Assembly (NCBI GenBank): GCA_964555185.1
Contig: CAZKRD010000002.1
Coordinates: forward strand, 245,268-309,267
Source: an uncultured Candidatus Saccharibacteria bacterium
Lineage (GTDB): Bacteria; Patescibacteriota; JAQUNI01
Length of the DNA stretch: 64,000 nt
Direction of reading: 5' to 3'
Positions 1 through 14,573 of this stretch are shown piece by piece; the stretch's first letter is position 1; every line of letters begins with the position of its first letter. Below the pieces are notes generated by a model. That model searched no databases. It saw only the letters and a program-made list of their open reading frames with translations, and was not told the origin of the DNA. Position numbers and translations under genes: made by a program.

Positions 1-145
1 GCCAAAATTGAGAATACTTCTTATCTTTTATCTTTAATAAAATGATTGATTGAAAATAGTCCGGAAGCATTTCATTGTCCTGCACATAGTTTTTTAATTT
101 TTTCGCTGTGATTTTTTCCATATTTTTCTTATAATTTATTTAATG

Positions 146-1054
146 TTATATTATTGGCTTTAAAACTAAGTCTCTGCGAAAACGATAAACCGGATGAGAA
201 CGATCAAGGTAAACATCTTCAATATAGAAATGAGGAATAAGATATTCATAAACCTCACCCAAAGGCGGATCTACTTCAATATATTCTCCCAAAACATTAC
301 CCTTAAAATCGCCATGAAAAGGCCAAATTTGCGCGAGAATCTCTTTGGATATCTTATGCTTCTGGGTGTAATTAATAATTTTCTTGCGCAGGTCATGAAG
401 CACGCATCCTCGTTTTTCCCAGCTGTAGACATATTCGAGACATAATTGGTAAAAAATGTAAACTTTATTTTGAAAATTCAAAAAGAATTTAGGATTTTCT
501 TTGTACTTCTTAAAAGCTAAGTCAAAAGTTATCTTTTCTTGAAAATCCATACAAACCATCGCACAAAAATACAATCCGTCTTTTTTGAGAACTTTAAAAA
601 TATCCTGAAAGTTCTTTTTCCAAACAGTCAAGGCCATATTACACTGCGTCTCGTCACTAAAAATAATATCAAATTCATTTTCCTTAAAATACTCACCCAC
701 CTTTTCCCATTTACCGCGAACAAAGCTCTCTTGTCTAGGATCTTCACTCATAAACTCCTTCATTCCTTGATACATAGACTGATTAGAATCTAAGCAGGTA
801 ACTTGCAATTTCAACTTTGCGCAGATATCACGTGTTTCTGGAGTGGCGCCAAGAATCAAAACCTTTAATTTCGGGTTCTTTTTAGCTTGTTTCTTTAAAT
901 GTGCTCTATAAAAAGAAAGTTGATTTTTATTGGGTCGCCAAGGCGGGCCAATCCCTTTCCAGAGATTAACATATTTCGCCCATTCTGGATTGTATGCTTT
1001 ATCTTTTTTATTCATATTAGGATTATAAATTTTGTTATTCTTTCTCATAAACAA
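146..1054 (-). CDS. Class I SAM-dependent methyltransferase-fold protein, paralog 1 of 6 (W-rich N-terminal extension)
   Basis: Shares the motifs found in all six paralogs: N-terminal W..W....RP....YE, motif I-like 'LILGATPETRD', acidic beta2 end 'VTCLDSN', 'FDIIFSD', motif III-like 'VLKKDGLYF'. Overlaps the start of the upstream ATP-grasp gene (1035-1054), so likely translationally coupled. Confidence 0.55.
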   Translation of the reverse strand: MFMRKNNKIYNPNMNKKDKAYNPEWAKYVNLWKGIGPPWRPNKNQLSFYRAHLKKQAKKNPKLKVLILGATPETRDICAKLKLQVTCLDSNQSMYQGMKEFMSEDPRQESFVRGKWEKVGEYFKENEFDIIFSDETQCNMALTVWKKNFQDIFKVLKKDGLYFCAMVCMDFQEKITFDLAFKKYKENPKFFLNFQNKVYIFYQLCLEYVYSWEKRGCVLHDLRKKIINYTQKHKISKEILAQIWPFHGDFKGNVLGEYIEVDPPLGEVYEYLIPHFYIEDVYLDRSHPVYRFRRDLVLKPII

Positions 1055-2369
1055 AAATCATATTCGCGGCCGCGCCGCCGCGGGCAAAGTTAGTAATTAA
1101 AGTATCTGAAAACCTACTCCACAATCCGACAATTTTGTTGTCAACTAAAAAGGGTAAAAAATCCGCTACTTTGAAACTTTCTTCAAGCTTTCCTTCTCGC
1201 CAAAGCAAGGTCTTGTATTTGTTAATCTGAATCTTCTTTTGAATCAGCCAGCCAGTATCAATCTTTTTTAGAATATCCTGCCATTCTTGGGAATTGTAGT
1301 CCTCGCCAAAATGAATGTGTTCGGCGCGGCTGGAAACGCTTTTTTTCAAAATCCAATCCTGCCTATTTTTGACCAAACCATTTTTCACCCGATCATAACC
1401 TGCTCCCTGATAAATAAAGCTTGGCGGGATTAAGCCTTTGATCGTCTTACCTTCTTTTTTGTCTGTAAAATACTGATCAAAGTACCCATTATAAATCAAG
1501 GCAAGCAATGATTTTTCCCCAAACAGAGAGGAAACAAAAGGATTTAGCATTTTAAAAGACCTGTTTTGATAACTTTGGATAAATGCTTCGCGCTTGGAAT
1601 CTACTAGTAAATCATCTAAGTCAAAAAGACGGTAAACAAAATCTATTTTCTTATCTTTAAAATAACATTGATTATTTTTAAAAGTAACATCTTGAATATT
1701 GCCAATAAAAGAATTAGGGGCTTCAGGCTTTAAGTATCGTTCTAAAAAGTATTTTGACTCTGTAATGAAAAAATCATCGCGCTGATCTTTGATTGTTAAA
1801 AGTAAAATGTTATCATTTTGATTTACACTTCCTAATATTTTTTTGACAATCGCCAGATCAGGGAAGGGAGTAAACAAATTATAGTTTTTCTCCAGTTTAG
1901 AAAAATTCAAAAATTTTTGATACAAAACGCCATAATCTTCTAAAATCCCATGGCCATTCGGACAATTGGTATTAATCTCCATTAAATTCATCTTATTACC
2001 CTCAAAAGCAAAATCAAAACGAAGCAAAGGGAAGGGATCAACTAAGTTTAACTTTTGATCAAATTGGTATAAATCTTTTTCTTCTTTAGAAAACCCTAAA
2101 ACCCTTTGAAGCTCTCCTAAATCCGCCTCTTTGTATAAGCGTTTTAGAAATCGAGAAAAAGAAGCCAGATCTTGCTCTAATTTTTCAAAATATTTTTGAG
2201 CAATAAAAAACGGAGTCAAAACGAAAAATTTCTCAAAGCCTTTCAATTGAAAAAGATTATTTTGATCAATATGCTGGTTTATTTTCTGGAAAATTTTCGG
2301 ATAATCTTTTTCTTGCGATCGACAAATCTTAAGAAATTCTTGATCGATTTTTTTGTCTTGATTGATCAT
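1035..2369 (-). CDS. Glutathionylspermidine-synthase-like (circularly permuted ATP-grasp) amidoligase
   Basis: 'PLLRFDFAFEGNKMNLMEINTNCPNGHG' matches the RFDF...(L/M)E(Y/I)N(A/T)DxP signature of the GspS/YgiC/YjfC ATP-grasp family. 444 aa; 4-bp overlap with the upstream hydrolase gene. Confidence 0.5.
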   Translation of the reverse strand: MINQDKKIDQEFLKICRSQEKDYPKIFQKINQHIDQNNLFQLKGFEKFFVLTPFFIAQKYFEKLEQDLASFSRFLKRLYKEADLGELQRVLGFSKEEKDLYQFDQKLNLVDPFPLLRFDFAFEGNKMNLMEINTNCPNGHGILEDYGVLYQKFLNFSKLEKNYNLFTPFPDLAIVKKILGSVNQNDNILLLTIKDQRDDFFITESKYFLERYLKPEAPNSFIGNIQDVTFKNNQCYFKDKKIDFVYRLFDLDDLLVDSKREAFIQSYQNRSFKMLNPFVSSLFGEKSLLALIYNGYFDQYFTDKKEGKTIKGLIPPSFIYQGAGYDRVKNGLVKNRQDWILKKSVSSRAEHIHFGEDYNSQEWQDILKKIDTGWLIQKKIQINKYKTLLWREGKLEESFKVADFLPFLVDNKIVGLWSRFSDTLITNFARGGAAANMIFVYEKE

Positions 2370-3487
2370 TTTGCCTCAATAATTTTTTTAATCCAGCGGC
2401 GGATTTGGTTTAATTCTTTGCCTTGTTCCCTTTCTTCTTTAGTTGGTTTGCGCAAATGGTAATCATGAACATCAACTGCTCCTTCTCTATCGTCAATTTT
2501 ATCAGCTAACAAGCCTTCTTCATCTAAGGCTTTCAAAACAATATTGCCGACTTTTTCATGACCCTTTAATTGACTGAAAAAGCGATAAACCTCGCCGTCA
2601 GGATCCATAGTAACATCATTATCAGTTAAAGAATTGATTGCTGTAATCCTGATATCCTCTGAAAAATCTTTGGCTGTATAGGTTTTAAGTCTCTCAAGCA
2701 TTTCAAAAATATCATCCATCACCTTTTCAGTGTCCATGCCTTTAAAAATTTCAGCATCAGCATGGCCTTGAAAATATTCACGATAAGGCTCCACATTCTC
2801 CTTGATTGTTTCAAGCCAAGATCCCAAAAGAATCGCGTTGTTAATCTTTGCTTCAATTTTGCGAGAAAAATCATTGTCTTCTTTTTTAAGCGCGGCCAAT
2901 GATTCCACCGCGATCCGCGCACCCCAAGAATGACCCATAATATCAATATTCTTAATCTCGTCAATTTTTGAACCCAAAGATTTAAGAAAAGTCAAAACCT
3001 CTCGGTCTGCTGCTTTCCAAGAGAATTTTTCGTCTTTGCCTAAAAACTCTTGTCCTTTTCCTTTAGCGTGTTCAAGTTTTTGAGGACAATGTAAATATTT
3101 CTTCACATCCTCACCTTCAATCCTTAATCCATTGTGCCGCAAAACAACAAAAGCTCTCTTGTCACGCGCAAATTCATCAGCATATTCTGCTTCTTGCATT
3201 GCAAACCCGCCAGCATAACCCGGGGAAAGCACTAGCACATCTTCATAGTCTTTAACTCCTTTAGGTAAATATGCCTTACCTTCTACCACTTCTCCTGTTT
3301 CTGGATTTTGAAATTCAGTCCAAAAACATCTGTAATCCCCTAGCTCGCGTTCCTTATGGTTTTCATCATGATCTTTTTCAAGCTCGAATGTTTTCTCACG
3401 ATTAAAATTCTCTCCAAAGATTTTTTCTAATTCAGAGAAATCTTCTTTTGGTTCTGCTTCTGGTGAAGAAATTCCTTCTTTATTCAT
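2366..3487 (-). CDS. Alpha/beta-fold serine hydrolase
   Basis: Nucleophile elbow G-x-S-x-G in 'IDIMGHSWGARIAVESL'. Downstream D/H candidates are present. Embedded in the paralog operon. Confidence 0.55.
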   Translation of the reverse strand: MNKEGISSPEAEPKEDFSELEKIFGENFNREKTFELEKDHDENHKERELGDYRCFWTEFQNPETGEVVEGKAYLPKGVKDYEDVLVLSPGYAGGFAMQEAEYADEFARDKRAFVVLRHNGLRIEGEDVKKYLHCPQKLEHAKGKGQEFLGKDEKFSWKAADREVLTFLKSLGSKIDEIKNIDIMGHSWGARIAVESLAALKKEDNDFSRKIEAKINNAILLGSWLETIKENVEPYREYFQGHADAEIFKGMDTEKVMDDIFEMLERLKTYTAKDFSEDIRITAINSLTDNDVTMDPDGEVYRFFSQLKGHEKVGNIVLKALDEEGLLADKIDDREGAVDVHDYHLRKPTKEEREQGKELNQIRRWIKKIIEAK

Positions 3488-3500
3488 AATTTTTGTTTAA

Positions 3501-4355
3501 TTATTTCTTTTTTAAAATATAGATTGGATAACCCGGGATGAATTTATCATAATTTTTGCCAAATTCAATTTTAGCTACCTTATAATGGCTTTCATAAAGC
3601 TTAGTCATATCAGAAAGCAAAGGCACGGTCCAGGTTTTATTACTTCTATTATAGCTCTTTTCCATCTTTTGAATAATCCTTTGCAGTTTTTTTCTTTTTT
3701 CGCCCTTTACTTTTTTTAAGTGCAAGTCCATCACTTGATAAATCCCGTTTACCGAAACTTCAAATGTTTTTTGATCTACAGCAGAGCTAAAAAGAAACAA
3801 GGTTTCAAAAACAATATCTGGTTTTGGATCTTTTTGATTTAAATAATGTTCTAGAATCTCATGATCAGGTCGTAAATAGTCTTTGCGGCTGACCGCGGTT
3901 CTTTGAACAAACAAACCATCTTTTTTAAGCAATGATTTTGTTTTCTCTAAAAAAGCATTATGGAGTCTAGATGGCAATTGATTAATTGAACCGTCAGCTA
4001 AGATAATATCAAAATAATTATGCTGAAGCGGAACTGACAGCCAATCACTTCTCGCCCAAACCTCTTTTTCCGCTACCTTGTAATGGCAAAGACTAGTTAG
4101 GGCTAGAATCATTTCTAAACTTAGATCACAAACAACTGTTTTAACCTTATTTTTATAAAACAGATCACGGATTTGGACGGTCGCGCCAAAAACCAAAGCC
4201 CACGCCTCCTTATTCCTGGTCTTCACTCTCTTGATATATTTTTCGTAAATATCCTGTTCATCCTTGGACGGAATGTTGGGCACATCCATATTCTTCCAGT
4301 CTCGAGCAATCTTTTGCCAAGGTTTGGCAAATTTATCTTTAGGCATAGATTTCAA
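3501..4355 (-). CDS. Class I SAM-MTase-fold protein, paralog 2 of 6
   Basis: 'LVFGATVQIRDLF', 'VVCDLS', 'FDIILADGS', 'SLLKKDGLFV'. C-terminal 'PIYILKKK'. N-terminal 'KPWQKIARDWK...IPSKDEQDIYEKY'. Confidence 0.55.
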   Translation of the reverse strand: MKSMPKDKFAKPWQKIARDWKNMDVPNIPSKDEQDIYEKYIKRVKTRNKEAWALVFGATVQIRDLFYKNKVKTVVCDLSLEMILALTSLCHYKVAEKEVWARSDWLSVPLQHNYFDIILADGSINQLPSRLHNAFLEKTKSLLKKDGLFVQRTAVSRKDYLRPDHEILEHYLNQKDPKPDIVFETLFLFSSAVDQKTFEVSVNGIYQVMDLHLKKVKGEKRKKLQRIIQKMEKSYNRSNKTWTVPLLSDMTKLYESHYKVAKIEFGKNYDKFIPGYPIYILKKK

Positions 4356-5335
4356 ATCTTGTTATTAATTACTTTTTTCTTTAAAACATAGATTGGACAG
4401 TGTTTGGTCATAGACTGGTCTTTGGCATAGACCCTATCTTGAATCTCAAAATGTTCTCTCAATTCTTTTTCACTTTCCTTTTTTGATAATACATACCATT
4501 GGTAGTCACCGCACATTGGCAGGAAAACATCTTCGTAAAAATCTAATAGCTCATAAATAATCCTGCTGTATTTGTGGTTTTGAAAACTTTTTTTATTCTC
4601 ATCTCGCAAAACCATTACATGGCTTTGTACGGAGTTTTTAAAATTCTTGTCTGTGCTCGTCTGATAAAATATTTTTATGAACAAAAGATTAGCTGCCAGT
4701 TGGAAACAATACTCACCACTGTCAATTCTCTTCGCTAGCTCAAGAAGAATTTGTTTTATGCTTGTTTTCTTGGTTTCAGGCAAATAGAAATTATGACGAG
4801 TAATCCAAGCGCCTTGATTCTTTAAAACCCTGCTTACTTCCGAAAATAGTTTTTTGTGTTTTGTAGAGGCAACATTACAGATTACTTCATCGCCTAAAAC
4901 TAAATCAAAATATTGATCTGGGAAACCATTAGCAAGCCAGGAACCTTTCTTGAATTCTTCTCTCAAACCATCTGCTCTTGCTAAAAACTCAGTCATTGCT
5001 CTATACATTGCTGGATTAATATCTACACAATAAGCCTTGGCATTATTTAAGATTTCATAAGTATACAAAATCCTGCGCAATTCGGGGGTTGCGCCCATGA
5101 TCATAATCTTGGTATTTTTTTGACCTTTCAAAAAATTCGCGATCAATTCACCGTAATTTTGACATTCATCCAGACTAGGACGATTAGGCACTAAAAGTTT
5201 GCTATACTCCCGACTTATTTTTTGCCAAGTCGCGATTTTATTTTTTTGAACTTCTGATTTTTTCATTTTTAACTTCGTGCTTTTATAGCAAATCTGAATC
5301 AAATCCTTGCGTAAATTTTTAATTATTCTCCGCAA
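4352..5335 (-). CDS. Class I SAM-MTase-fold protein, paralog 3 of 6
   Basis: 'IMIMGATPELRRIL', 'AYCVDIN', 'FDLVLGDEV', 'RVLKNQGAWI'. C-terminal 'PIYVLKKK'. 4-bp overlap with paralog 2. Confidence 0.55.
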   Translation of the reverse strand: MRRIIKNLRKDLIQICYKSTKLKMKKSEVQKNKIATWQKISREYSKLLVPNRPSLDECQNYGELIANFLKGQKNTKIMIMGATPELRRILYTYEILNNAKAYCVDINPAMYRAMTEFLARADGLREEFKKGSWLANGFPDQYFDLVLGDEVICNVASTKHKKLFSEVSRVLKNQGAWITRHNFYLPETKKTSIKQILLELAKRIDSGEYCFQLAANLLFIKIFYQTSTDKNFKNSVQSHVMVLRDENKKSFQNHKYSRIIYELLDFYEDVFLPMCGDYQWYVLSKKESEKELREHFEIQDRVYAKDQSMTKHCPIYVLKKKVINNKI

Positions 5336-6161
5336 AATAGATACGACAAGCTTTGTAAACTCGATGTTCTTTGCTTGTATCTGAAGCTATAATCTTAAAA
5401 TCTTTTTCTAAAACATTCTCAAAATCAACTCGACGCGGAAGGATATAGATACAGCGCTTTGGGATGTAGATGTGATCAGTGATCTCTGATGCCTCTTCTA
5501 GGGAAAGTTCAATCTCTTTTTCCCAAGCCTGCGCCATCAATTCAAAAACCGAAAGCCAATAAGGCCCGTGTTTTTCTTCTTGATAAATATCTGTATTAAA
5601 CATTAAAGCATAAAGAAAATACCATTTCTCAAAATGATTTTTAAAACCCTTGCGGTATTTATCTAAAAAGTCTTTAAGAGTTGTCTTATCCTGAATCTCT
5701 CTTAAGACAATATTTGTAATCAAATACCCGGGACTCTTAAGGTGTCTTTTGATATTAGCGCTAAATTCTCGATGACGGTTAAAGGGAATATTACAATAAA
5801 TATGATCACCGCAAACAATGTCGAATTTCTCTTTTGCTCTAAATTTTAACCAATCACTATAAATAATCTTCTCTTTAGGATTTTTCTTTTTAACAAGTTT
5901 ATTCATTGCCCTAACCATTTCAGGATTAAGATCAACCATTGTTACTTCTAGATTGTATTTGGCAAATAAATCACGCAGTTCTGGGGTTGCCCCGAATAAC
6001 AAAATCTTTGGCTTTTTGCCGATTCTCTTTCTCACTTCTTTTAAAAATTTTTCATAAACTAAAATCTCACCAGGCGATGGCCGCATTGGCGGTTTTAAAT
6101 CTCCCCAAACTTGGGAAAGACTTTTCCAAGAATATGTCTGATTTTGGATTTTATTAGGCAT
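5319..6161 (-). CDS. Class I SAM-MTase-fold protein, paralog 4 of 6
   Basis: 'ILLFGATPELRDLF', 'VTMVDLN', 'FDIVCGDHI', 'RHLKSPGYLI'. N-terminal 'WKSLSQVWGDLKPPMRPSPGEILVYEKF'. Overlaps paralog 3 start. Confidence 0.55.
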   Translation of the reverse strand: MPNKIQNQTYSWKSLSQVWGDLKPPMRPSPGEILVYEKFLKEVRKRIGKKPKILLFGATPELRDLFAKYNLEVTMVDLNPEMVRAMNKLVKKKNPKEKIIYSDWLKFRAKEKFDIVCGDHIYCNIPFNRHREFSANIKRHLKSPGYLITNIVLREIQDKTTLKDFLDKYRKGFKNHFEKWYFLYALMFNTDIYQEEKHGPYWLSVFELMAQAWEKEIELSLEEASEITDHIYIPKRCIYILPRRVDFENVLEKDFKIIASDTSKEHRVYKACRIYFAENN

Positions 6162-6232
6162 ATTTTCAAACCCACTATTGTAAATTATATCAAAATTTTA
6201 GCTAAAAAGAAAGGATATTTCAAAACCATTTA

Positions 6233-7048
6233 TCAAATCTTCTTCAAAAAATAAACCGGTTCGAATTTGCAGTATTCAAACTTTTGAACATAAGAAATAG
6301 AAACAATCTTGAAATGTGTTTTAGCTAATTTCTCAAATTCATCTTTTGGAGGCAGAGTTGAAACGCCGGCAAAATGTTTGTATTTATTCAAAATTCCAAA
6401 ATCAGACCTTATTTCCCCATCTTCTTTTAATTTTTTTACTTTTTCTAAAAATCTCTGCCAAGAAAACTGATATGTTTTAGAATCCCACATGGTTGCTGCG
6501 GCTTGCACTAAAAAATCCTGTTCTGTTTTAATTTTCCCCATCTTGTATTTTTCAAAAACATTGACTATATCTTCACAAACCCAGCTATCTGGAAATTTAA
6601 CAATTAAGTGGGTAGAAACAAAACCATTGGGTTTTAATAGACTATGTAATTTTTTTAACATCTTACCCCAATCCCGCCAGAAAAGTACAGTCAAGACATC
6701 ATCACCAGCAATTAAATCATAATAATTATCTGGCAAGGGTAATTCTCGCCAGTCAGCACGTACAAATGTCTCCTTCTCTATATCTCCTCGAACGAGCAAG
6801 CTCATTGCTTGGTACATCAAAAGAGAATGATCAACACAAGTTACCTCAAATTTGTATTTATGAGCCAGTGTGCGTAATTCTGGGGTAGAACCTAAAATCA
6901 AAATTCGCGGATTCTTCCTCCGCGCTATTTTTTTGAAATGTTTTTCATAAATTTCTTCGTGTTCGGGCAACGGCCGCACGGTCGTATCTTTCCATTTTTC
7001 CCAATCTTGGGCAATCTTGCGAATGTTTTTGGTTAAAATATAAGGCAT
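6233..7048 (-). CDS. Class I SAM-MTase-fold protein, paralog 5 of 6
   Basis: 'ILILGSTPELRTLA', 'VTCVDHS', 'YDLIAGDDV', 'SLLKPNGFVS'. C-terminal 'PVYFLKKI'. Confidence 0.55.
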   Translation of the reverse strand: MPYILTKNIRKIAQDWEKWKDTTVRPLPEHEEIYEKHFKKIARRKNPRILILGSTPELRTLAHKYKFEVTCVDHSLLMYQAMSLLVRGDIEKETFVRADWRELPLPDNYYDLIAGDDVLTVLFWRDWGKMLKKLHSLLKPNGFVSTHLIVKFPDSWVCEDIVNVFEKYKMGKIKTEQDFLVQAAATMWDSKTYQFSWQRFLEKVKKLKEDGEIRSDFGILNKYKHFAGVSTLPPKDEFEKLAKTHFKIVSISYVQKFEYCKFEPVYFLKKI

Positions 7049-7060
7049 ATATTATAAACT

Positions 7061-7190
7061 GTCATTGCGAGGAGCGACCCCGAGCCCGCCGAGGGGAAGC
7101 GACGAAGCAATCTCCTTGAAAAAGGTATTGCTGCTCTACGAGATTGCTTTGGTCACCTCACCCCGAAGGGCAGGCTCCCTCGCAATGACA
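7061..7190. repeat. MITE-like palindromic element (family A), terminal inverted repeats GTCATTGCGAGGAGCGAC ... CCTCGCAATGACA with an internal hairpin (GCAATCTC/GAGATTGC)
   Basis: Seen directly in the sequence. Related copies lie at 22768-22921 and 34044-34149. GC-rich in an AT-rich background. Sits between paralogs 6 and 5. Confidence 0.7.
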
Positions 7191-7346
7191 ACGGGATTGT
7201 TATTTTCTCTCCAATTGCATAACATAACCCCAGTTATAACAGGTGGAGTTACGCGGTTCAGGTGACTTATCTTTAACTCTAAAATATTTTAAAAGCATCC
7301 ATTTGTCTTTTTCCCAATTAAAATAGGTCCATTCTTTATCCATCGG

Positions 7347-8039
7347 CTAAATCTCTTTTGCTTTTTTATAGGCCCTTTTTACTCTCGGATCTTTAATGTA
7401 TTTTTTTAATTCCGCGAAAAAAAGATTAGTGCCGATTTTGTAATTCTTGTTTAAATTCGAATAAAAAGTGCCCCTAGTCCAAAAATCTTCAAAATTCTGC
7501 ACGCTGTAACCTTTTTCTAAATACTCTTTTAAAAGCACATTAAAATTATGGGTTTTGCTCTCTGGGAAGTCAGCATAGAAGCGGGTCAGAAAATAGCCAT
7601 TAAACTTTAAGAGTCTATGTGCTTTTTTAAAAAACACAGGCTGGTTAGCTCTTAATACATTTTCCAAGATATAGTCGCCAAACAGAACATCATATTCGTT
7701 TTCTCTTAAAGGTGCGGAGAGCCAATTGCTTTTCACCCAAATCTCTTTATCTGTTTCCTTTTTATTGTGCATTAATTCTGTCATCGCGATAATCATCTCT
7801 AAATTAGAATCAACAATTGTTACTTTTACTTTAGGATAGCACGCCAGAAGATCACGGATTTCTGGTGTCGCGCCAAAGACCAAAGCCTTAGGACTCTTTT
7901 TCCCTTTAATTGCTTCTTTTAAATATTTTTCATAATCCTGAATGTTTTTGCGGCAAGGCCTGGTGGGATGCTTTAGTTTTTTCCACATCTTAGCCCATTC
8001 CTTCCATGGTTCAATGAATTTTTCTCGCTTTTTGGACAT
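7347..8039 (-). CDS. Class I SAM-MTase-fold protein, paralog 6 of 6 (shorter; lacks the C-terminal P-x-Y-x-LKK segment)
   Basis: 'ALVFGATPEIRDLL', 'VTIVDSN', 'YDVLFGDYI', 'RLLKFNGYFL'. N-terminal 'EPWKEWAKMWKKLKHPTRP...YEKY'. 230 aa versus 271-327 aa for the others. Confidence 0.5.
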   Translation of the reverse strand: MSKKREKFIEPWKEWAKMWKKLKHPTRPCRKNIQDYEKYLKEAIKGKKSPKALVFGATPEIRDLLACYPKVKVTIVDSNLEMIIAMTELMHNKKETDKEIWVKSNWLSAPLRENEYDVLFGDYILENVLRANQPVFFKKAHRLLKFNGYFLTRFYADFPESKTHNFNVLLKEYLEKGYSVQNFEDFWTRGTFYSNLNKNYKIGTNLFFAELKKYIKDPRVKRAYKKAKEI

Positions 8040-8511
8040 AAATTCACTTTAAGAACATATTTTTAATGAATTGTACTAATTAAAACCCTCATTTGATGGG
8101 AATTAAAGCTTTATGCCTTTTATCTTGGCCTATGTGTACAAATACTCTATAGTCGGAGAAACTTGGAAGAAGTCCTGTGAAGTCACAACGCACTTGTCAT
8201 TCACGTGAAAAAGCGGGAATCAGAGTATTCTTGCTCTAAAACCTGGATCTCCGATCAAGTCGGAGATGACAAATGACCTACGTTTGCTTATGAAGATGAC
8301 AACTAAAGGCTATGGAACCAACAAGCACAATAACTAGCACAATCCATATTTTTATAATAAAATTGTATCAAATTTGAGCGATAAAATAAAGGTTTGGTAA
8401 AAATTTATCAGGATATAAAAGTTGACGAAACAATGAAAAAGAGTTATCTTTATAATGAAATGCTGGATAACACGAAACGAAAACACAACCAAAGAGAGGA
8501 GATGACGATAA

Positions 8512-8751
8512 ATGAAGGAAGAGTCACAAGCCGTTTTGTTTATTATGTTGTTTATCTCGGGGATATTTTATCTTGTCGCGATGACCTTCCTTTATCCCAT
8601 TGAAGTCATCCAAGAAAAAAGGATGAGGCACTGCTACAAAAAGAGGCACAGTAAACAGGAGTCTGGTTGGGAAGACTGCTGTAATAAATCTTGCCTCGGA
8701 GCCTGCAACGCTCTCCGGGAAAGGGATTGTCTGGCAAATTTAGAACAGTGA
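8512..8751 (+). CDS. Small membrane protein with a Cys-rich C-terminal tail (6 Cys in ~36 aa)
   Basis: RBS GAGAGGAG ~10 nt upstream of the ATG. One predicted TM helix 'VLFIMLFISGIFYLVAMTFLY'. C-terminus 'HCYKKRHSKQESGWEDCCNKSCLGACNALRERDC'. A rho-independent terminator-like hairpin lies downstream (~8838-8862). Confidence 0.4.
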   Translation: MKEESQAVLFIMLFISGIFYLVAMTFLYPIEVIQEKRMRHCYKKRHSKQESGWEDCCNKSCLGACNALRERDCLANLEQ

Positions 8752-8932
8752 GCAAGAAATGGCGATAAAGAAGCGCTGGGCTCTCTGGAGTTCTATTATC
8801 GCTATGGATAAAGCTTCCCCCACAAGAGGTTCGAAAAACCTCTTTTTTTATATCAAGTATTTTTAACATTGAAAATAGAAAATAAAAAAAAGTTGCAGGG
8901 ATTGCTACAACTAAAGTAGAAATATATTCCAC

Positions 8933-9196
8933 TTAAGATTCCTCTTGTATCTCAAATTTTGTCCCTTGCACACAGTAACTAATTAATCTTTGCCCTCTTG
9001 GAACCCCTTTGCGGCGTATTTTTATCCGAAGAGACAAATAGCCAGGAATATATCGAAATTCTTCTATTCTCACTGGAGGTTCAGCGGGATCAGAACAAAA
9101 AGGTATAACCACTACCAAACAATTCTTTAACGCTTTATTTAATCTGTCTGCCTCCGCTTGAGTAATCTCTTTTATCCCAAAAACCTGATTAGACAT
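8933..9196 (-). CDS. Hypothetical 87-aa protein
   Basis: Strong RBS AAGGAGGA 5 nt before the ATG. No recognisable motif. Lies between the Cys-rich peptide gene and the subtilase. Confidence 0.45.
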   Translation of the reverse strand: MSNQVFGIKEITQAEADRLNKALKNCLVVVIPFCSDPAEPPVRIEEFRYIPGYLSLRIKIRRKGVPRGQRLISYCVQGTKFEIQEES

Positions 9197-9349
9197 ATGA
9201 TCCTCCTTGCGTGTTGTTTTTCTTGAAAAAATTAGACAAAATAAAAAAGATCAAATTAAAAAACTAAATTAATATCTTTTAATCTTGGTTGAAAATCCAA
9301 CTTTGTCAAATTTAACCCTCAAGATGAAAAGTTAATATAATAACAGTTC

Positions 9350-12448: not shown

Positions 12449-13213
12449 TTATTGCTCTACTTGCTGCAATTTGCTTGCCGAAAAATCATCAATCTTCTTT
12501 GAGATCTTGGCCGCGTCCTCCTCTCTTCCCAATTTGTTGTAGAGCAACTCCTGATTATGCAAAACCAAAAGTTGAATCGTTGATATTTCCATATCTCTCA
12601 AGCAATCCTCAGAAGACTCAACAGGGCCCCAAAAAGCAAAAAGTCTATCAATACAATCAAGGCATTGGGTAAAATATCCTAGAGCCTCCTCTTCGTGACC
12701 TAGATCGAGATTATAGAAAGCAAGGTTACTGTAAACTATCATTAAACCTTCTTGCTCATCTGGGGTTTTTGTCTCTGTGGCTTCCAGAATCTTCTGGGCT
12801 TTTTGCCAATAAATCACTGCCTTTTGATAATACTCTTGGGCTATGTATAAATCAGCAAGATCAATATAGAGGCATGGATCTTCTATCCCATTATTCTGAT
12901 TAATATCAAGGGCTTTTTGATAATACTCTAAAGACTCTTTATAATCCCCCTGCTCTTGATAAACAAAAGCTTTAATATGTAATGCCTTGGTATTTTCAGG
13001 TTCCCAATCGAAAATCCTTTCGCAACAATATAATGCATCTTGATAGTTTCCCGTACGAGTATATTCACGAGCTCTAGATGTAAGACGACTAATCAGGTTT
13101 CTCCTTCGAATGGCTTCTTTTCTATTTAAAGCTAAGTGTCCAACAAGGAAAAGTAATAAAACAATTACAACTAACGGCCACTTTAAAAAGCTCCGCTTCT
13201 TACTGTCTGACAT
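12449..13213 (-). CDS. TPR-repeat protein with an N-terminal membrane anchor
   Basis: TM 'WPLVVIVLLLFLVGHLAL'. Repeated TPR-like W/Y-x-x-A-L-x-I motifs ('YYQKALDINQNN', 'AVIYWQKAQKIL', 'ALYCCERIFDWEP'). Confidence 0.6.
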   Translation of the reverse strand: MSDSKKRSFLKWPLVVIVLLLFLVGHLALNRKEAIRRRNLISRLTSRAREYTRTGNYQDALYCCERIFDWEPENTKALHIKAFVYQEQGDYKESLEYYQKALDINQNNGIEDPCLYIDLADLYIAQEYYQKAVIYWQKAQKILEATETKTPDEQEGLMIVYSNLAFYNLDLGHEEEALGYFTQCLDCIDRLFAFWGPVESSEDCLRDMEISTIQLLVLHNQELLYNKLGREEDAAKISKKIDDFSASKLQQVEQ

Positions 13214-13290
13214 AGCCTAAAACCCCCTTTCTTCTAATAAAGAGTTTTGTATTGAGGAATAAAAAAAGAACAAACAACTTAAGCCAAAAG

Positions 13291-13364
13291 TACGCTCAGG
13301 AGGATTCGAACCTCCGACCTCAAGCTCCGGAAGCTTGCGCTCTATCCAGCTGAGCTATGAGCGC
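13291..13364 (-). tRNA. tRNA-Arg (anticodon CCG)
   Basis: Manual fold: acceptor GCGCUCA/UGAGCGU, D-arm GCUC-AGCUGGAUA-GAGC, anticodon stem CAAGC/GCUUG with loop UUCCGGA, T-arm GGAGG-UUCGAAU-CCUCC, discriminator A. Confidence 0.85.
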
Positions 13365-13443
13365 TTTAATTCAAATAACGAATTTAATAATCACTAATAT
13401 CAAAAACAACCAGCCAATCTTAATCAATTGACTTGATTTCTAA

Positions 13444-13725
13444 TTACTCCAAGACTTTATAAACCACATCTCCTTCGTGCACTTTTTGATCCACTTTCAA
13501 ACCAATCACATCTCCTTTTTTCGCCTCCTGAATCTGATCGTGTTCAACCTGCATTGACTCCACTTTTTGGTCAAAATCTTCGCTGTGGCCCTTGATATGA
13601 ATCGTTTCACCGACTTTCAACCCGCCTTTAGTAATTTCAATAAGCCCCACCTTAATTTTATTGTAATAATGGGTTATTTTACCAATCTCTTCTTCTTTGC
13701 GTTCTTCTTGTTTTTTTTCTGCCAC
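13444..13725 (-). CDS. Small standalone protein with an EF-Tu domain-2-like beta-barrel (94 aa, GTG start)
   Basis: 'VGLIEITKGGLKVGETIHIKGH...VESMQVEHDQIQEAKKGDVIGLKVDQKVHEGDVVYKV' matches the EF-Tu domain-2 consensus (G.v..G.l.vGd.v.i.......V.si......v..A.aGd.vgl.l......i..Gdvl). RBS AGGAGGTG 7 nt before the GTG. The longer ORF in the track has no RBS. Confidence 0.4.
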   Translation of the reverse strand: MAEKKQEERKEEEIGKITHYYNKIKVGLIEITKGGLKVGETIHIKGHSEDFDQKVESMQVEHDQIQEAKKGDVIGLKVDQKVHEGDVVYKVLE

Positions 13726-13970
13726 TTTTTTCTCACCTCCTTTCGATTCTATTATACTAGAGTTTTCAAAAAATATAAAGCAAAGAGGCCAATATTGAAG
13801 ACTTTTACACCAAAAATTCAAAAAAATTGCTTCTGTGGATAACTCACTTGTATTCGGTTTTTGTTTGGTGTATAATATAAACCAGATGGGCCTCGCAAAA
13901 ACATTTTGAATTCTCCCTCGACCTCGATTAGCTAAAAAGGCGGCAAACCGCCTCTATAAAAAACATCTTT

Positions 13971-14573
13971 ATGCAGATAACCAAACGACAAAAACAAATA
14001 TTGGATTTCTTAGTCGAATTCATTGCCACCCATGACTATGCTCCCAGTTTACGCGAGATAGCCGATCATTTTGGTTTGTCTTCAACCGCGACCGTGCACG
14101 AACACCTTAGAAATTTAGAAGACTCTGGCTATATCCAATCCGTCAAAGGCGAAGCGCGTTCGATTAGCCCTTCAGGTAAGTTTATGCGCTTTAAAAAAGC
14201 AATTGAACTGCCTTTAGTCGGCTTAATCGCCGCTGGTGAACCGATTGAAGCAATTCAACAGAATGAAACCATCTGTGTCCCTTTGGGTTTAGTAGATAAA
14301 AAACCGAATTCTTTTGTTCTTCAAGTCAAAGGAAGCTCAATGATTGATGAGGGAATATTAAACGGGGATTATATTATCGCGGAAAGGACCTTTTCGCCTA
14401 AAAACGGCGATGTCGTGGTTGCTTTGCTCAACAATCAGTACGCCACCCTCAAAAAGTTTTTCAGAGAAAAAAACAGAATCAGACTCCAGCCAGCAAACAA
14501 AAATATGAAACCGATCTATTCAAAGAACCCGGCAATCCAAGGAATTGTCCGCGCGGTGATGAGGAAATTCTGA
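13971..14573 (+). CDS. lexA: LexA repressor (S24 peptidase)
   Basis: N-terminal wHTH 'LTKRQKQILDFLVEF...APSLREIADHFGLSS'. Cleavage-site region 'LPLVGLIAAGEP'. Ser in 'VKGSSMIDEGI', Lys in 'GDVVVALLNNQYATLKKF'. Promoter-like TTGTTT...TATAAT upstream. Confidence 0.85.
   Translation: MQITKRQKQILDFLVEFIATHDYAPSLREIADHFGLSSTATVHEHLRNLEDSGYIQSVKGEARSISPSGKFMRFKKAIELPLVGLIAAGEPIEAIQQNETICVPLGLVDKKPNSFVLQVKGSSMIDEGILNGDYIIAERTFSPKNGDVVVALLNNQYATLKKFFREKNRIRLQPANKNMKPIYSKNPAIQGIVRAVMRKF

Follow-up and report, generated by a model that had tools for sequence, protein, structure and literature searches.

What is the function of six different methyltransferase-fold genes standing head to tail at the left end of a 64,000-nt stretch of DNA (hereafter the window) from an uncultured Candidatus Saccharibacteria bacterium? 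The question was raised by a sequence-only reading of the window, which had placed between positions 146 and 8039 a tandem array of six divergent paralogs with an embedded ATP-grasp ligase and an alpha/beta hydrolase, and had proposed it as a candidate undescribed modification system. The six genes, named MT-A to MT-F in the direction of transcription, belong to a widespread family of predicted S-adenosylmethionine (SAM)-dependent methyltransferases that typically occurs in arrays. We consider that the array in this window forms part of an accessory cluster which may build or tailor a small molecule, and give this reading a probability of about 0.5.

The eight co-directional open reading frames (ORFs) between 146 and 8039 were all found in the ORF list at the positions that had been described, all on the minus strand. 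MT-A (7347..8039, 230 codons) ends at an in-frame TAG, beyond which a C-terminal remnant of 48 codons continues in the same frame (7200..7346, TAA stop at 7202-7200). It is followed by MT-B (6233..7048, 271 aa), MT-C (5319..6161, 280 aa), MT-D (4352..5266, 304 aa from the ATG at 5266), MT-E (3501..4346, 281 aa from the ATG at 4346), the alpha/beta hydrolase (2366..3487, 373 aa), a GspS-type ATP-grasp carboxylate-amine ligase (1035..2369, 444 aa) and MT-F (146..1015, 289 aa from the ATG at 1015). The longest ORFs of MT-D and MT-F start at the TTG codons 5335 and 1054, respectively, but ATG 5266 and ATG 1015 agree better with the gene calls of the source contig and with the family alignment. Two overlaps that had been counted towards an operon, 1035-1054 and 5319-5335, are products of the TTG starts, and the ATG starts leave gaps of 19 and 52 nt in their place. 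As for the two ATGA overlaps, that at 2366-2369, where the ligase start overlaps the hydrolase stop, is a true ATGA, while the sequence at 4352-4355 is TTGA and the likelier start of the following gene, ATG 4346, leaves a 5-nt gap. Even with the ATG starts the genes are tightly packed; the intergenic gaps range from -4 to 71 nt, except for about 150-300 nt after MT-A.

To define the relationship among the paralogs, the six sequences were compared with each other. Pairwise BLASTP identities were 25-39% with E values from 8e-12 to 6e-31, which indicate homology rather than chance, and the identities to the first sequence in a MAFFT alignment were 28-35%. The divergence to well under 50% identity, previously judged by eye, is thus confirmed by computation, and we concluded that the six paralogs diverged long ago. 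Their common motif architecture was borne out in the six-sequence alignment and in 131 aligned members of the family. Throughout the family the canonical glycine-rich motif I, E/D-x-G-x-G-x-G, is replaced, and L-G-[AS]-T-P-E-[LI]-R-D stands instead of GxGxG: G53 is conserved in 100%, T55 in 99%, P56 in 93%, E57 in 85% and R59 in 98% of the 131 members, and MT-E carries the variant G-A-T-V-Q-I-R. Further conserved columns in the same alignment are D73 (99%), E93 (95%), W100 (100%), D111 (93%) and D116 (98%). D73 is the acidic residue at the end of beta2, which binds the ribose hydroxyls in class I methyltransferases, and it is present in all six window copies. The N-terminal extension W...W...R-P is 85-97% conserved in the family alignment, with 94-97% for the R-P itself. 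The C-terminal P[IV]Y[IVF]LKK, which had been attributed to four of the six copies, occurs strictly in three. By column entropy, motif I is the least variable part (1.5 bits), and a lid of about 80 residues between beta5 and beta6 is the most variable (3.3 bits). A conserved cofactor core combined with a variable substrate cap would be the pattern expected when the chemistry stays and the substrate changes.

Five of the paralogs match the Pfam model Methyltransf_11 above its cut-off of 21.2 bits (MT-A 26.1, MT-B 35.9, MT-C 28.8, MT-D 36.3 and MT-F 29.9 bits). MT-E scores 20.8 bits, 0.4 below the gathering score, and matches the hidden Markov model (HMM) of the family with an E value of 2e-78. 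When the PDB was searched with the family profile, phosphoethanolamine N-methyltransferases came out on top (2e-11). MT-B was chosen for structure modelling, and its AlphaFold2 model (pLDDT 93.2) has a Rossmann-like alpha/beta fold with a seven-stranded sheet; the best structural matches, like the best sequence matches, are ordinary methyltransferases. These results agree with the class I SAM-methyltransferase fold proposed from the motifs, and we assign the six genes, as judged by profile and model, to one family within the class I SAM-dependent (Methyltransf_11/25-type) small-molecule methyltransferases. The proposed resemblance to the LCMT/TcmP family is unsupported, because PF04072 gave no match and LCMT/TcmP enzymes are missing from the lists of sequence and structural neighbours; this kinship was therefore ruled out. 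No NCBIfam model came near its cut-off for the paralogs, and literature searches found no description of the family or its arrays. With no curated NCBIfam family, no Pfam model beyond the generic Methyltransf_11/25 and no paper found, the view that the combination is undescribed stands, and all components of the cluster fall in known superfamilies. Two surveys of 'resistance-like' methyltransferases and rifampin-phosphotransferase-like genes in the candidate phyla radiation (CPR) touch these enzyme classes only in general terms.

To determine how widely the family is distributed, we performed an exhaustive HMM search, which returned 2,953 cluster representatives with E<=1e-3, of which 413 reached E<=1e-30, and scanned genomes and metagenomes with the back-translated pattern L-G-A-T-P-E-L-R-D-L, which yielded 140 loci, 118 after de-duplication. 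By record title the hosts include the Patescibacteria lineages Falkow-, Moranii-, Doudna-, Buchanan-, Parcu- and Saccharibacteria and the DPANN lineages Woese-, Micr- and Nanoarchaeota. The largest arrays are held by low-G+C metagenome-assembled genomes (MAGs) labelled Gammaproteobacteria, which were confirmed only as bacterial (GroEL, RpoC and LepA). The range of the family covers both Patescibacteria and DPANN archaea, as well as certain further uncultured bacteria. Short fragments included, 57 of the 118 de-duplicated groups carry at least two copies and 30 at least four, and head-to-tail arrays of 2 to 19 copies are the typical state of the family. Contig CAZQVF010000001.1 (three consecutive 8-kb chunks, L027, L019 and L026) carries 19 domains in a head-to-tail row that extends for about 17 kb. 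Copies can also be fused: at L045 1125-6239 a single ORF of 1,704 aa (P0007) consists of six different family domains, and P0008 and P0010 are two-domain fusions.

The copies within an array are not close relatives of each other. For 98% of array copies the best match lies in another locus, and the median best identity is 31% within the array versus 73% to a copy elsewhere. Clustering of 293 near-full-length domains at 42% identity gave 51 clusters and 46 singletons. The difference between about 31% and about 73% rules out recent lineage-specific amplification, and we concluded that each copy of an array comes from a different old subfamily. The order of the subfamilies is partly conserved as well: cluster 9 (MT-C in the window), cluster 3 (MT-D) and the hydrolase recur in this order in the source contig, in L001 and in the Doudnabacteria contig L107/L011. 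All window paralogs other than MT-E have orthologs at 46-88% identity, in the same order, in L001 or in L046, a close relative that carries a related cluster. Orthologs of MT-C are found in L001 and L011 (60%) and in L046 (88%), and those of MT-D in L001 and L046 (59-65%) and in the large arrays of the MAGs labelled Gammaproteobacteria (45%). The MT-F ortholog in L001 (56%) occupies the same relative position after the hydrolase. P0009 looks like the ortholog of MT-E, as judged by reading both sequences side by side.

Comparison with L046 provided estimates of selection. The ratio of nonsynonymous to synonymous substitution rates (dN/dS) is 0.04-0.10 for MT-A, the hydrolase, the GspS-type ligase, a 58-aa ORF, a glutamate-cysteine-ligase (GCL)-like gene and a class I glutamine amidotransferase (GATase)-type gene, the last three of which are described below; the values for MT-A and the GspS-type ligase are 0.09 and 0.07, respectively. 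For MT-D dS is saturated, hence no ratio was obtained; the proportions of nonsynonymous and synonymous differences are 0.21 (pN) and 0.76 (pS). Amino-acid changes in both MT-A and MT-D are few relative to silent ones, and MT-A, the sole paralog with a computable dN/dS, is under purifying selection.

The same comparison bears on the premature stop of MT-A, which is 82% identical to a full-length ortholog of 284 aa in L046. At the position of the in-frame TAG (7349-7347) the ortholog has Leu, and a tblastn alignment with it runs straight through the TAG. Over the 47 codons past the stop the protein identity is 94%, and the dN of 0.046 against a dS of 0.77 (dN/dS about 0.06) indicates that the remnant was under purifying selection until recently. 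The stop would accordingly be a nonsense mutation of very recent date, a codon that is read through or an artefact of the assembly.

The two other genes of the window array were then analysed. Thirteen homologs of the hydrolase were detectable, all in the same kind of context, and in these GHSWG (S187 in the nucleophile elbow) and H341 are invariant and D289 is near-invariant. An alpha/beta fold, the G-x-S-x-G elbow and the conserved His and Asp make it a serine alpha/beta hydrolase, as had been suggested, of carboxylesterase-like type. The neighbouring ligase contains the RFDF...EINT motifs and matches PF03738 (GSP_synth) with 35.7 bits against a cut-off of 29.3 over profile positions 89-266 of 371, in accordance with its description as a GspS-like ATP-grasp. 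Searches of PDB sequences with the hydrolase and with this ligase gave nothing significant. The duality of ligase and amidase that had been drawn from bifunctional glutathionylspermidine synthetase/amidase (GspSA) was not upheld: the amidase of GspSA is a CHAP cysteine peptidase, and the carboxylesterase-like alpha/beta fold of the window hydrolase rules out a GspSA-like amidase.

Position 146 had been taken as the end of the cluster. On the same strand of the source contig, a Patescibacteria metagenome scaffold of 355,555 bp (whose stretch is labelled L004), the run of genes continues past position 1 of the window, and the full cluster spans L004 4331-19735. The first of the further genes is the conserved 58-aa ORF (L004 12249-12425), whose first 40 codons occupy window positions 2..121 on the minus strand and which abuts the start of the GCL-like ligase gene. 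With 88% amino-acid identity to L046 and a dN/dS of 0.044 it is a real small protein, which might serve as a subunit of the ligase, as a carrier or as a precursor. Beyond the window edge, the same strand encodes a protein of 466 aa that is glutamate-cysteine-ligase-like in its C-terminal part (TIGR01436, E 1e-7); a 457-aa CP_ATPgrasp_2 ligase, which gives a weak glutathione-synthetase match and is paralogous to the GspS-type ligase (E 1.5e-20); a class I GATase-type protein of 377 aa, in which the motifs GICLGHQ and HPE are found; a 435-aa protein with a C-terminal swivel domain of phosphoenolpyruvate (PEP) utilizers; and a 320-aa PPDK_N ATP-binding protein (350 bits). A 69-aa ORF follows the GATase-type gene, a histidine-phosphatase-like gene on the opposite strand lies between this ORF and the swivel-domain gene, and the last gene listed is a phosphoribosyl-pyrophosphate (PRPP) synthetase gene, which follows the cluster in both L004 and L001. 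The swivel protein and the PPDK_N protein would together make up a split dikinase resembling rifampin phosphotransferase (RPH).

Which neighbours accompany the family in general was examined by counting partners in the 118 groups; since many fragments are short, the counts are lower bounds. A divergent pyridoxal-phosphate (PLP) enzyme of Cys/Met metabolism was found in 20 groups, a swivel-histidine (RPH-like) protein in 18, an esterase of the alpha/beta hydrolase type in 9, PPDK_N in 6, MTAP and a NIF3-like protein in 4 each, and a radical SAM enzyme in 3. Methionine gamma-lyase is the nearest match of the PLP enzyme (E 1e-17). Rifampin phosphotransferases align with the swivel-protein profile over about 240 residues (E 1e-30), part of their drug-binding domain included, and MTAP is identified at equivalog level (TIGR01694, 306 bits, cut-off 275). 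A recurrent operon has the order PLP enzyme, a varying number of methyltransferases, swivel protein. The module of GspS-type ligase, GCL-like protein, CP-ATP-grasp and GATase occurs in 2 groups, the source contig and its close relative L046. With ligases in 2 and the hydrolase in 9 of the 118 groups, the co-occurrence check did not confirm a dedicated system of methyltransferases, ligase and hydrolase.

On the basis of these data, the reading that we favour is an accessory cluster for a small molecule, in which combinatorial tailoring is plausible. Each paralog would bind SAM and methylate its own position on a common substrate or its own related substrate, and the copies of one array would work together on a single small-molecule scaffold or in a single pathway, a joint action for which both the six-domain fusion and the conserved sub-orders speak. 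The model for this would be the sequential N-methylations of the two-domain phosphoethanolamine methyltransferases (PMTs), the closest solved relatives by sequence. In the present locus the array would belong to one long operon-like, low-G+C accessory cluster. Its three ATP-dependent carboxylate-amine ligases (the GspS-type ATP-grasp, the GCL-like protein and the second ATP-grasp) might assemble a short amide-linked scaffold, for instance a peptide-amine conjugate or a gamma-glutamyl peptide. Trimming of the scaffold or removal of protecting groups would fall to the GATase-type enzyme together with the carboxylesterase-like hydrolase, possibly by methyl-ester removal following BioC/BioH or LCMT/PME logic, and the split RPH-like dikinase could phosphorylate the scaffold. 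The ligase set would then be a lineage-specific addition, and the family-wide partners would be the Met-gamma-lyase-like PLP enzyme, the swivel-histidine kinase, MTAP and the esterase.

The components of the cluster resemble several known systems in part. The PMTs of Plasmodium, nematodes and plants and the glycine/sarcosine N-methyltransferases likewise have a class I fold with a lid after beta5, and the two- and six-domain fusions of the family parallel the tandem domains of PMTs, which make successive methylations with these domains. However, these enzymes are only about 15-19% identical to the family, whose G-A-T-P-E motif I is unaligned and not GxGxG, and which is also set apart by its W...W...R-P N-terminal extension and by arrays that reach 19 copies drawn from dozens of subfamilies. 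In one printed alignment, with the P. knowlesi PMT, the consensus of the family has Asn at the position that we take to be that of the catalytic His in PfPMT; the N-terminal Tyr of the catalytic Tyr/His dyad could not be aligned. Generic Methyltransf_11/25 enzymes (BH2331, PH0226, BelI, toxoflavin N1-methyltransferase, UbiE/Coq5 and BioC) gave no specific subfamily match, and the motif I signature sets the family apart from them. The PF03738 ligase, the GCL-like protein and the second ATP-grasp mirror the enzyme types that make glutathione and its spermidine conjugate (GshA/GshB/GspS), but their matches are partial and far under equivalog scores; unlike GspSA, the cluster has no CHAP amidase and instead a carboxylesterase-like alpha/beta neighbour. 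As in RPH and the PEP-synthase-like dikinases PigC/RedH, an ATP-grasp (PPDK_N) and a swivel phospho-histidine domain are present, here jointly in the two downstream genes, and about 140 further residues of the swivel protein align to the rifampin-binding domain of RPH; in contrast to RPH, the dikinase is split into two genes outside the window, and most of about 300 N-terminal residues are without a match. In BioC-BioH/BioJ and LCMT-1/PME-1 a Methyltransf_11-type enzyme likewise adjoins an alpha/beta esterase, and BioC and BioJ are both among the fold matches. We take this as no more than an analogy; the score with the BioC model is 21 bits (cut-off 185), LCMT gives no match, and there is no acyl-carrier or PP2A context.

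Several observations weigh against the accessory-cluster reading. Motif I lacks both the canonical glycines and the acidic residue upstream of them, and the Pfam matches and the PDB profile alignment start only after it, so that SAM binding in the usual pose is assumed. Arrays of up to 19 copies are hard to reconcile with a single product. The ligase module, being lineage-specific, may be an independent neighbour and not part of the same pathway, and the assignment of the genes to one operon is drawn from their spacing. MTAP within arrays and a PLP partner of the gamma-family would fit a chemistry that forms methylthioadenosine (MTA) equally well. In addition, the nonsense codon of MT-A together with the split copies in L046 amounts to decay in close relatives. 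In L046 the orthologs of MT-B and MT-C (6506-8232) are frameshifted into fragments, and of the second ATP-grasp (14088-14449) only ORFs of 65 and 55 aa are left; the cluster there is either decaying or poorly assembled, and the split copies and degraded ATP-grasp suggest that it is accessory and in flux.

Four other explanations were weighed against the accessory-cluster reading. The paralogs, the RPH-like kinases and the esterases could form a toolkit for detoxification or resistance, each inactivating different ones among the exogenous toxins or antibiotics that surface-attached ultrasmall cells meet. Enzymes of all three classes are well known as modifiers of drugs, the patchy distribution, the decaying copies and the large number of subfamilies with a variable lid would fit, and the swivel protein, present in six tandem copies in L092, matches RPH including part of its substrate domain. 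RPH-like genes and methyltransferases are also counted among CPR resistance-like genes by the surveys mentioned above. Nevertheless, the six-domain fusion and the recurring subfamily order point to one joint pathway, the first-gene PLP enzyme and the local ligases have no obvious role in detoxification, and the subfamilies are old and conserved with no recent expansion, which leaves the toolkit unlikely. We also regard it as rather unlikely that the paralogs are MTA-forming SAM enzymes on a methyltransferase scaffold, such as 3-amino-3-carboxypropyl or aminopropyl transferases or SAM cyclases/lyases of the kind of MccD, nicotianamine synthase and AzeJ, with the PLP enzyme processing a homoserine-like moiety and MTAP removing the MTA. 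The near-invariant Glu and Arg of G-[AS]-T-P-E-[LI]-R could bind SAM by its amino-acid end and keep it in an atypical pose, equivalog-level MTAP lies inside arrays in four de-duplicated groups, and the Met-gamma-lyase-like enzyme is the first gene in many arrays. The paper on AzeJ describes a non-canonical GxxxG loop in a methyltransferase-fold SAM cyclase and homologs in CPR; this lead was followed up and no specific connection to the family was seen, and AzeJ, VioH and MccD are all absent from the PDB profile search at E<=1. Moreover, ordinary methyltransferases head both the sequence and the structure matches, MTAP occurs in a minority of loci and may be a plain purine-salvage gene, and a gamma-lyase-like enzyme would equally fit the disposal of homocysteine after methyl transfer.

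It is improbable that the paralogs methylate macromolecules, one for each site on a protein, an RNA or a cell-surface polymer, with neighbours that are unrelated. Their closest sequence matches are small-molecule N-methyltransferases, they contain no nucleic-acid-binding or protein-recognition domain, they match no curated RNA or protein methyltransferase family, and their recurrent partners are metabolic enzymes. More improbable still is a set of catalytically dead binding proteins (pseudoenzymes) or a decaying junk array. The non-canonical motif I, the premature stop of MT-A and the frameshifted L046 copies would be accounted for in this way, but strong purifying selection is seen where measurable (about 0.09 for MT-A), the core residues, including the beta2 Asp and D116, are near-invariant in the 131 members, and the subfamilies are conserved across bacterial and archaeal phyla. 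A mobile-element cargo is countered by searches without a match: the family motif pattern was absent from 2.9 million viral contigs, and tblastn with MT-D found nothing in 72,556 plasmids and 50,697 phages. An anti-phage defence system was also rejected; the one match in PADLOC was to mad2 (E 2e-9), through a generic methyltransferase domain, and the partner proteins had no match.

Patescibacteria and DPANN archaea have genomes of about 1 Mb and have shed most biosynthesis. Even so, in some of them tandem methyltransferase-fold genes of ancient divergence take up 5 to 16 kb, an investment that argues for an important unrecognised function in uncultured symbionts. This function might lie in a metabolite family, in a route of salvage or remodelling or in a defence against host chemistry. 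The six genes of the window represent a modest case of this widespread keeping of arrays in ultrasmall symbionts, and their altered cofactor loop may mark new SAM chemistry. A wider proposal, which we regard as doubtful, is that at least 50 subfamilies with the unique G-[AS]-T-P-E-[LI]-R loop form, in host-dependent ultrasmall Patescibacteria and DPANN archaea on both sides of the bacteria/archaea divide, modular batteries of 2 to 19 enzymes that, together with the PLP enzyme and the kinase, remodel or make SAM-derived or polymethylated symbiosis metabolites, by a chemistry that is possibly MTA-forming.

Some further features of the related loci were recorded. In L092, six tandem swivel-protein paralogs (1032-6896 and 12664-14139) flank five methyltransferase genes, which indicates that the kinase partner can itself be amplified into an array. 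Arrays repeatedly lie next to purine and nucleoside salvage genes (MTAP and PRPP synthetase); in L012 (2000-2809) and L030 (2439-3761) MTAP stands inside or at the end of arrays, and in L030 a phosphoribosyltransferase gene adjoins it. The six-domain fusion of L045 is located near genes for AMP phosphorylase, ribose-1,5-bisphosphate isomerase and the RuBisCO large subunit, which we read as a nucleotide-salvage set. The array of CAZQVF010000001.1 includes one two-domain ORF and is preceded by a PLP enzyme gene; after it come a NIF3-like gene, one more methyltransferase gene, a radical SAM gene and, further on, PPDK_N. The C-terminal part of P0034 (394 aa), which has its own Met, was read by eye as riboflavin-kinase-like, and this protein is perhaps a two-gene read-through. 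In L046 the MT-F and dikinase genes are absent.

Upstream of the array, a region of about 1.3 kb (8040-9349) contains no convincing gene; two ORFs in it (87 and 108 aa) have no Pfam match, and the region has no Rfam match. It could hold a promoter, a leader or a decayed gene. Promoter and terminator scans gave nothing informative above the shuffled expectation, and in the window and 17 related loci no riboswitch reached the gathering score, with tRNAs as the only hits. The G+C content of the cluster (window 1-8039) is 0.348, compared with a mean of 0.400 +/- 0.015 and a minimum of 0.368 for 8-kb windows of 8040-64000. The cluster segment is thus compositionally distinct and may have been acquired. 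The G+C content of the ligase and kinase genes past the window edge is likewise low (0.36).

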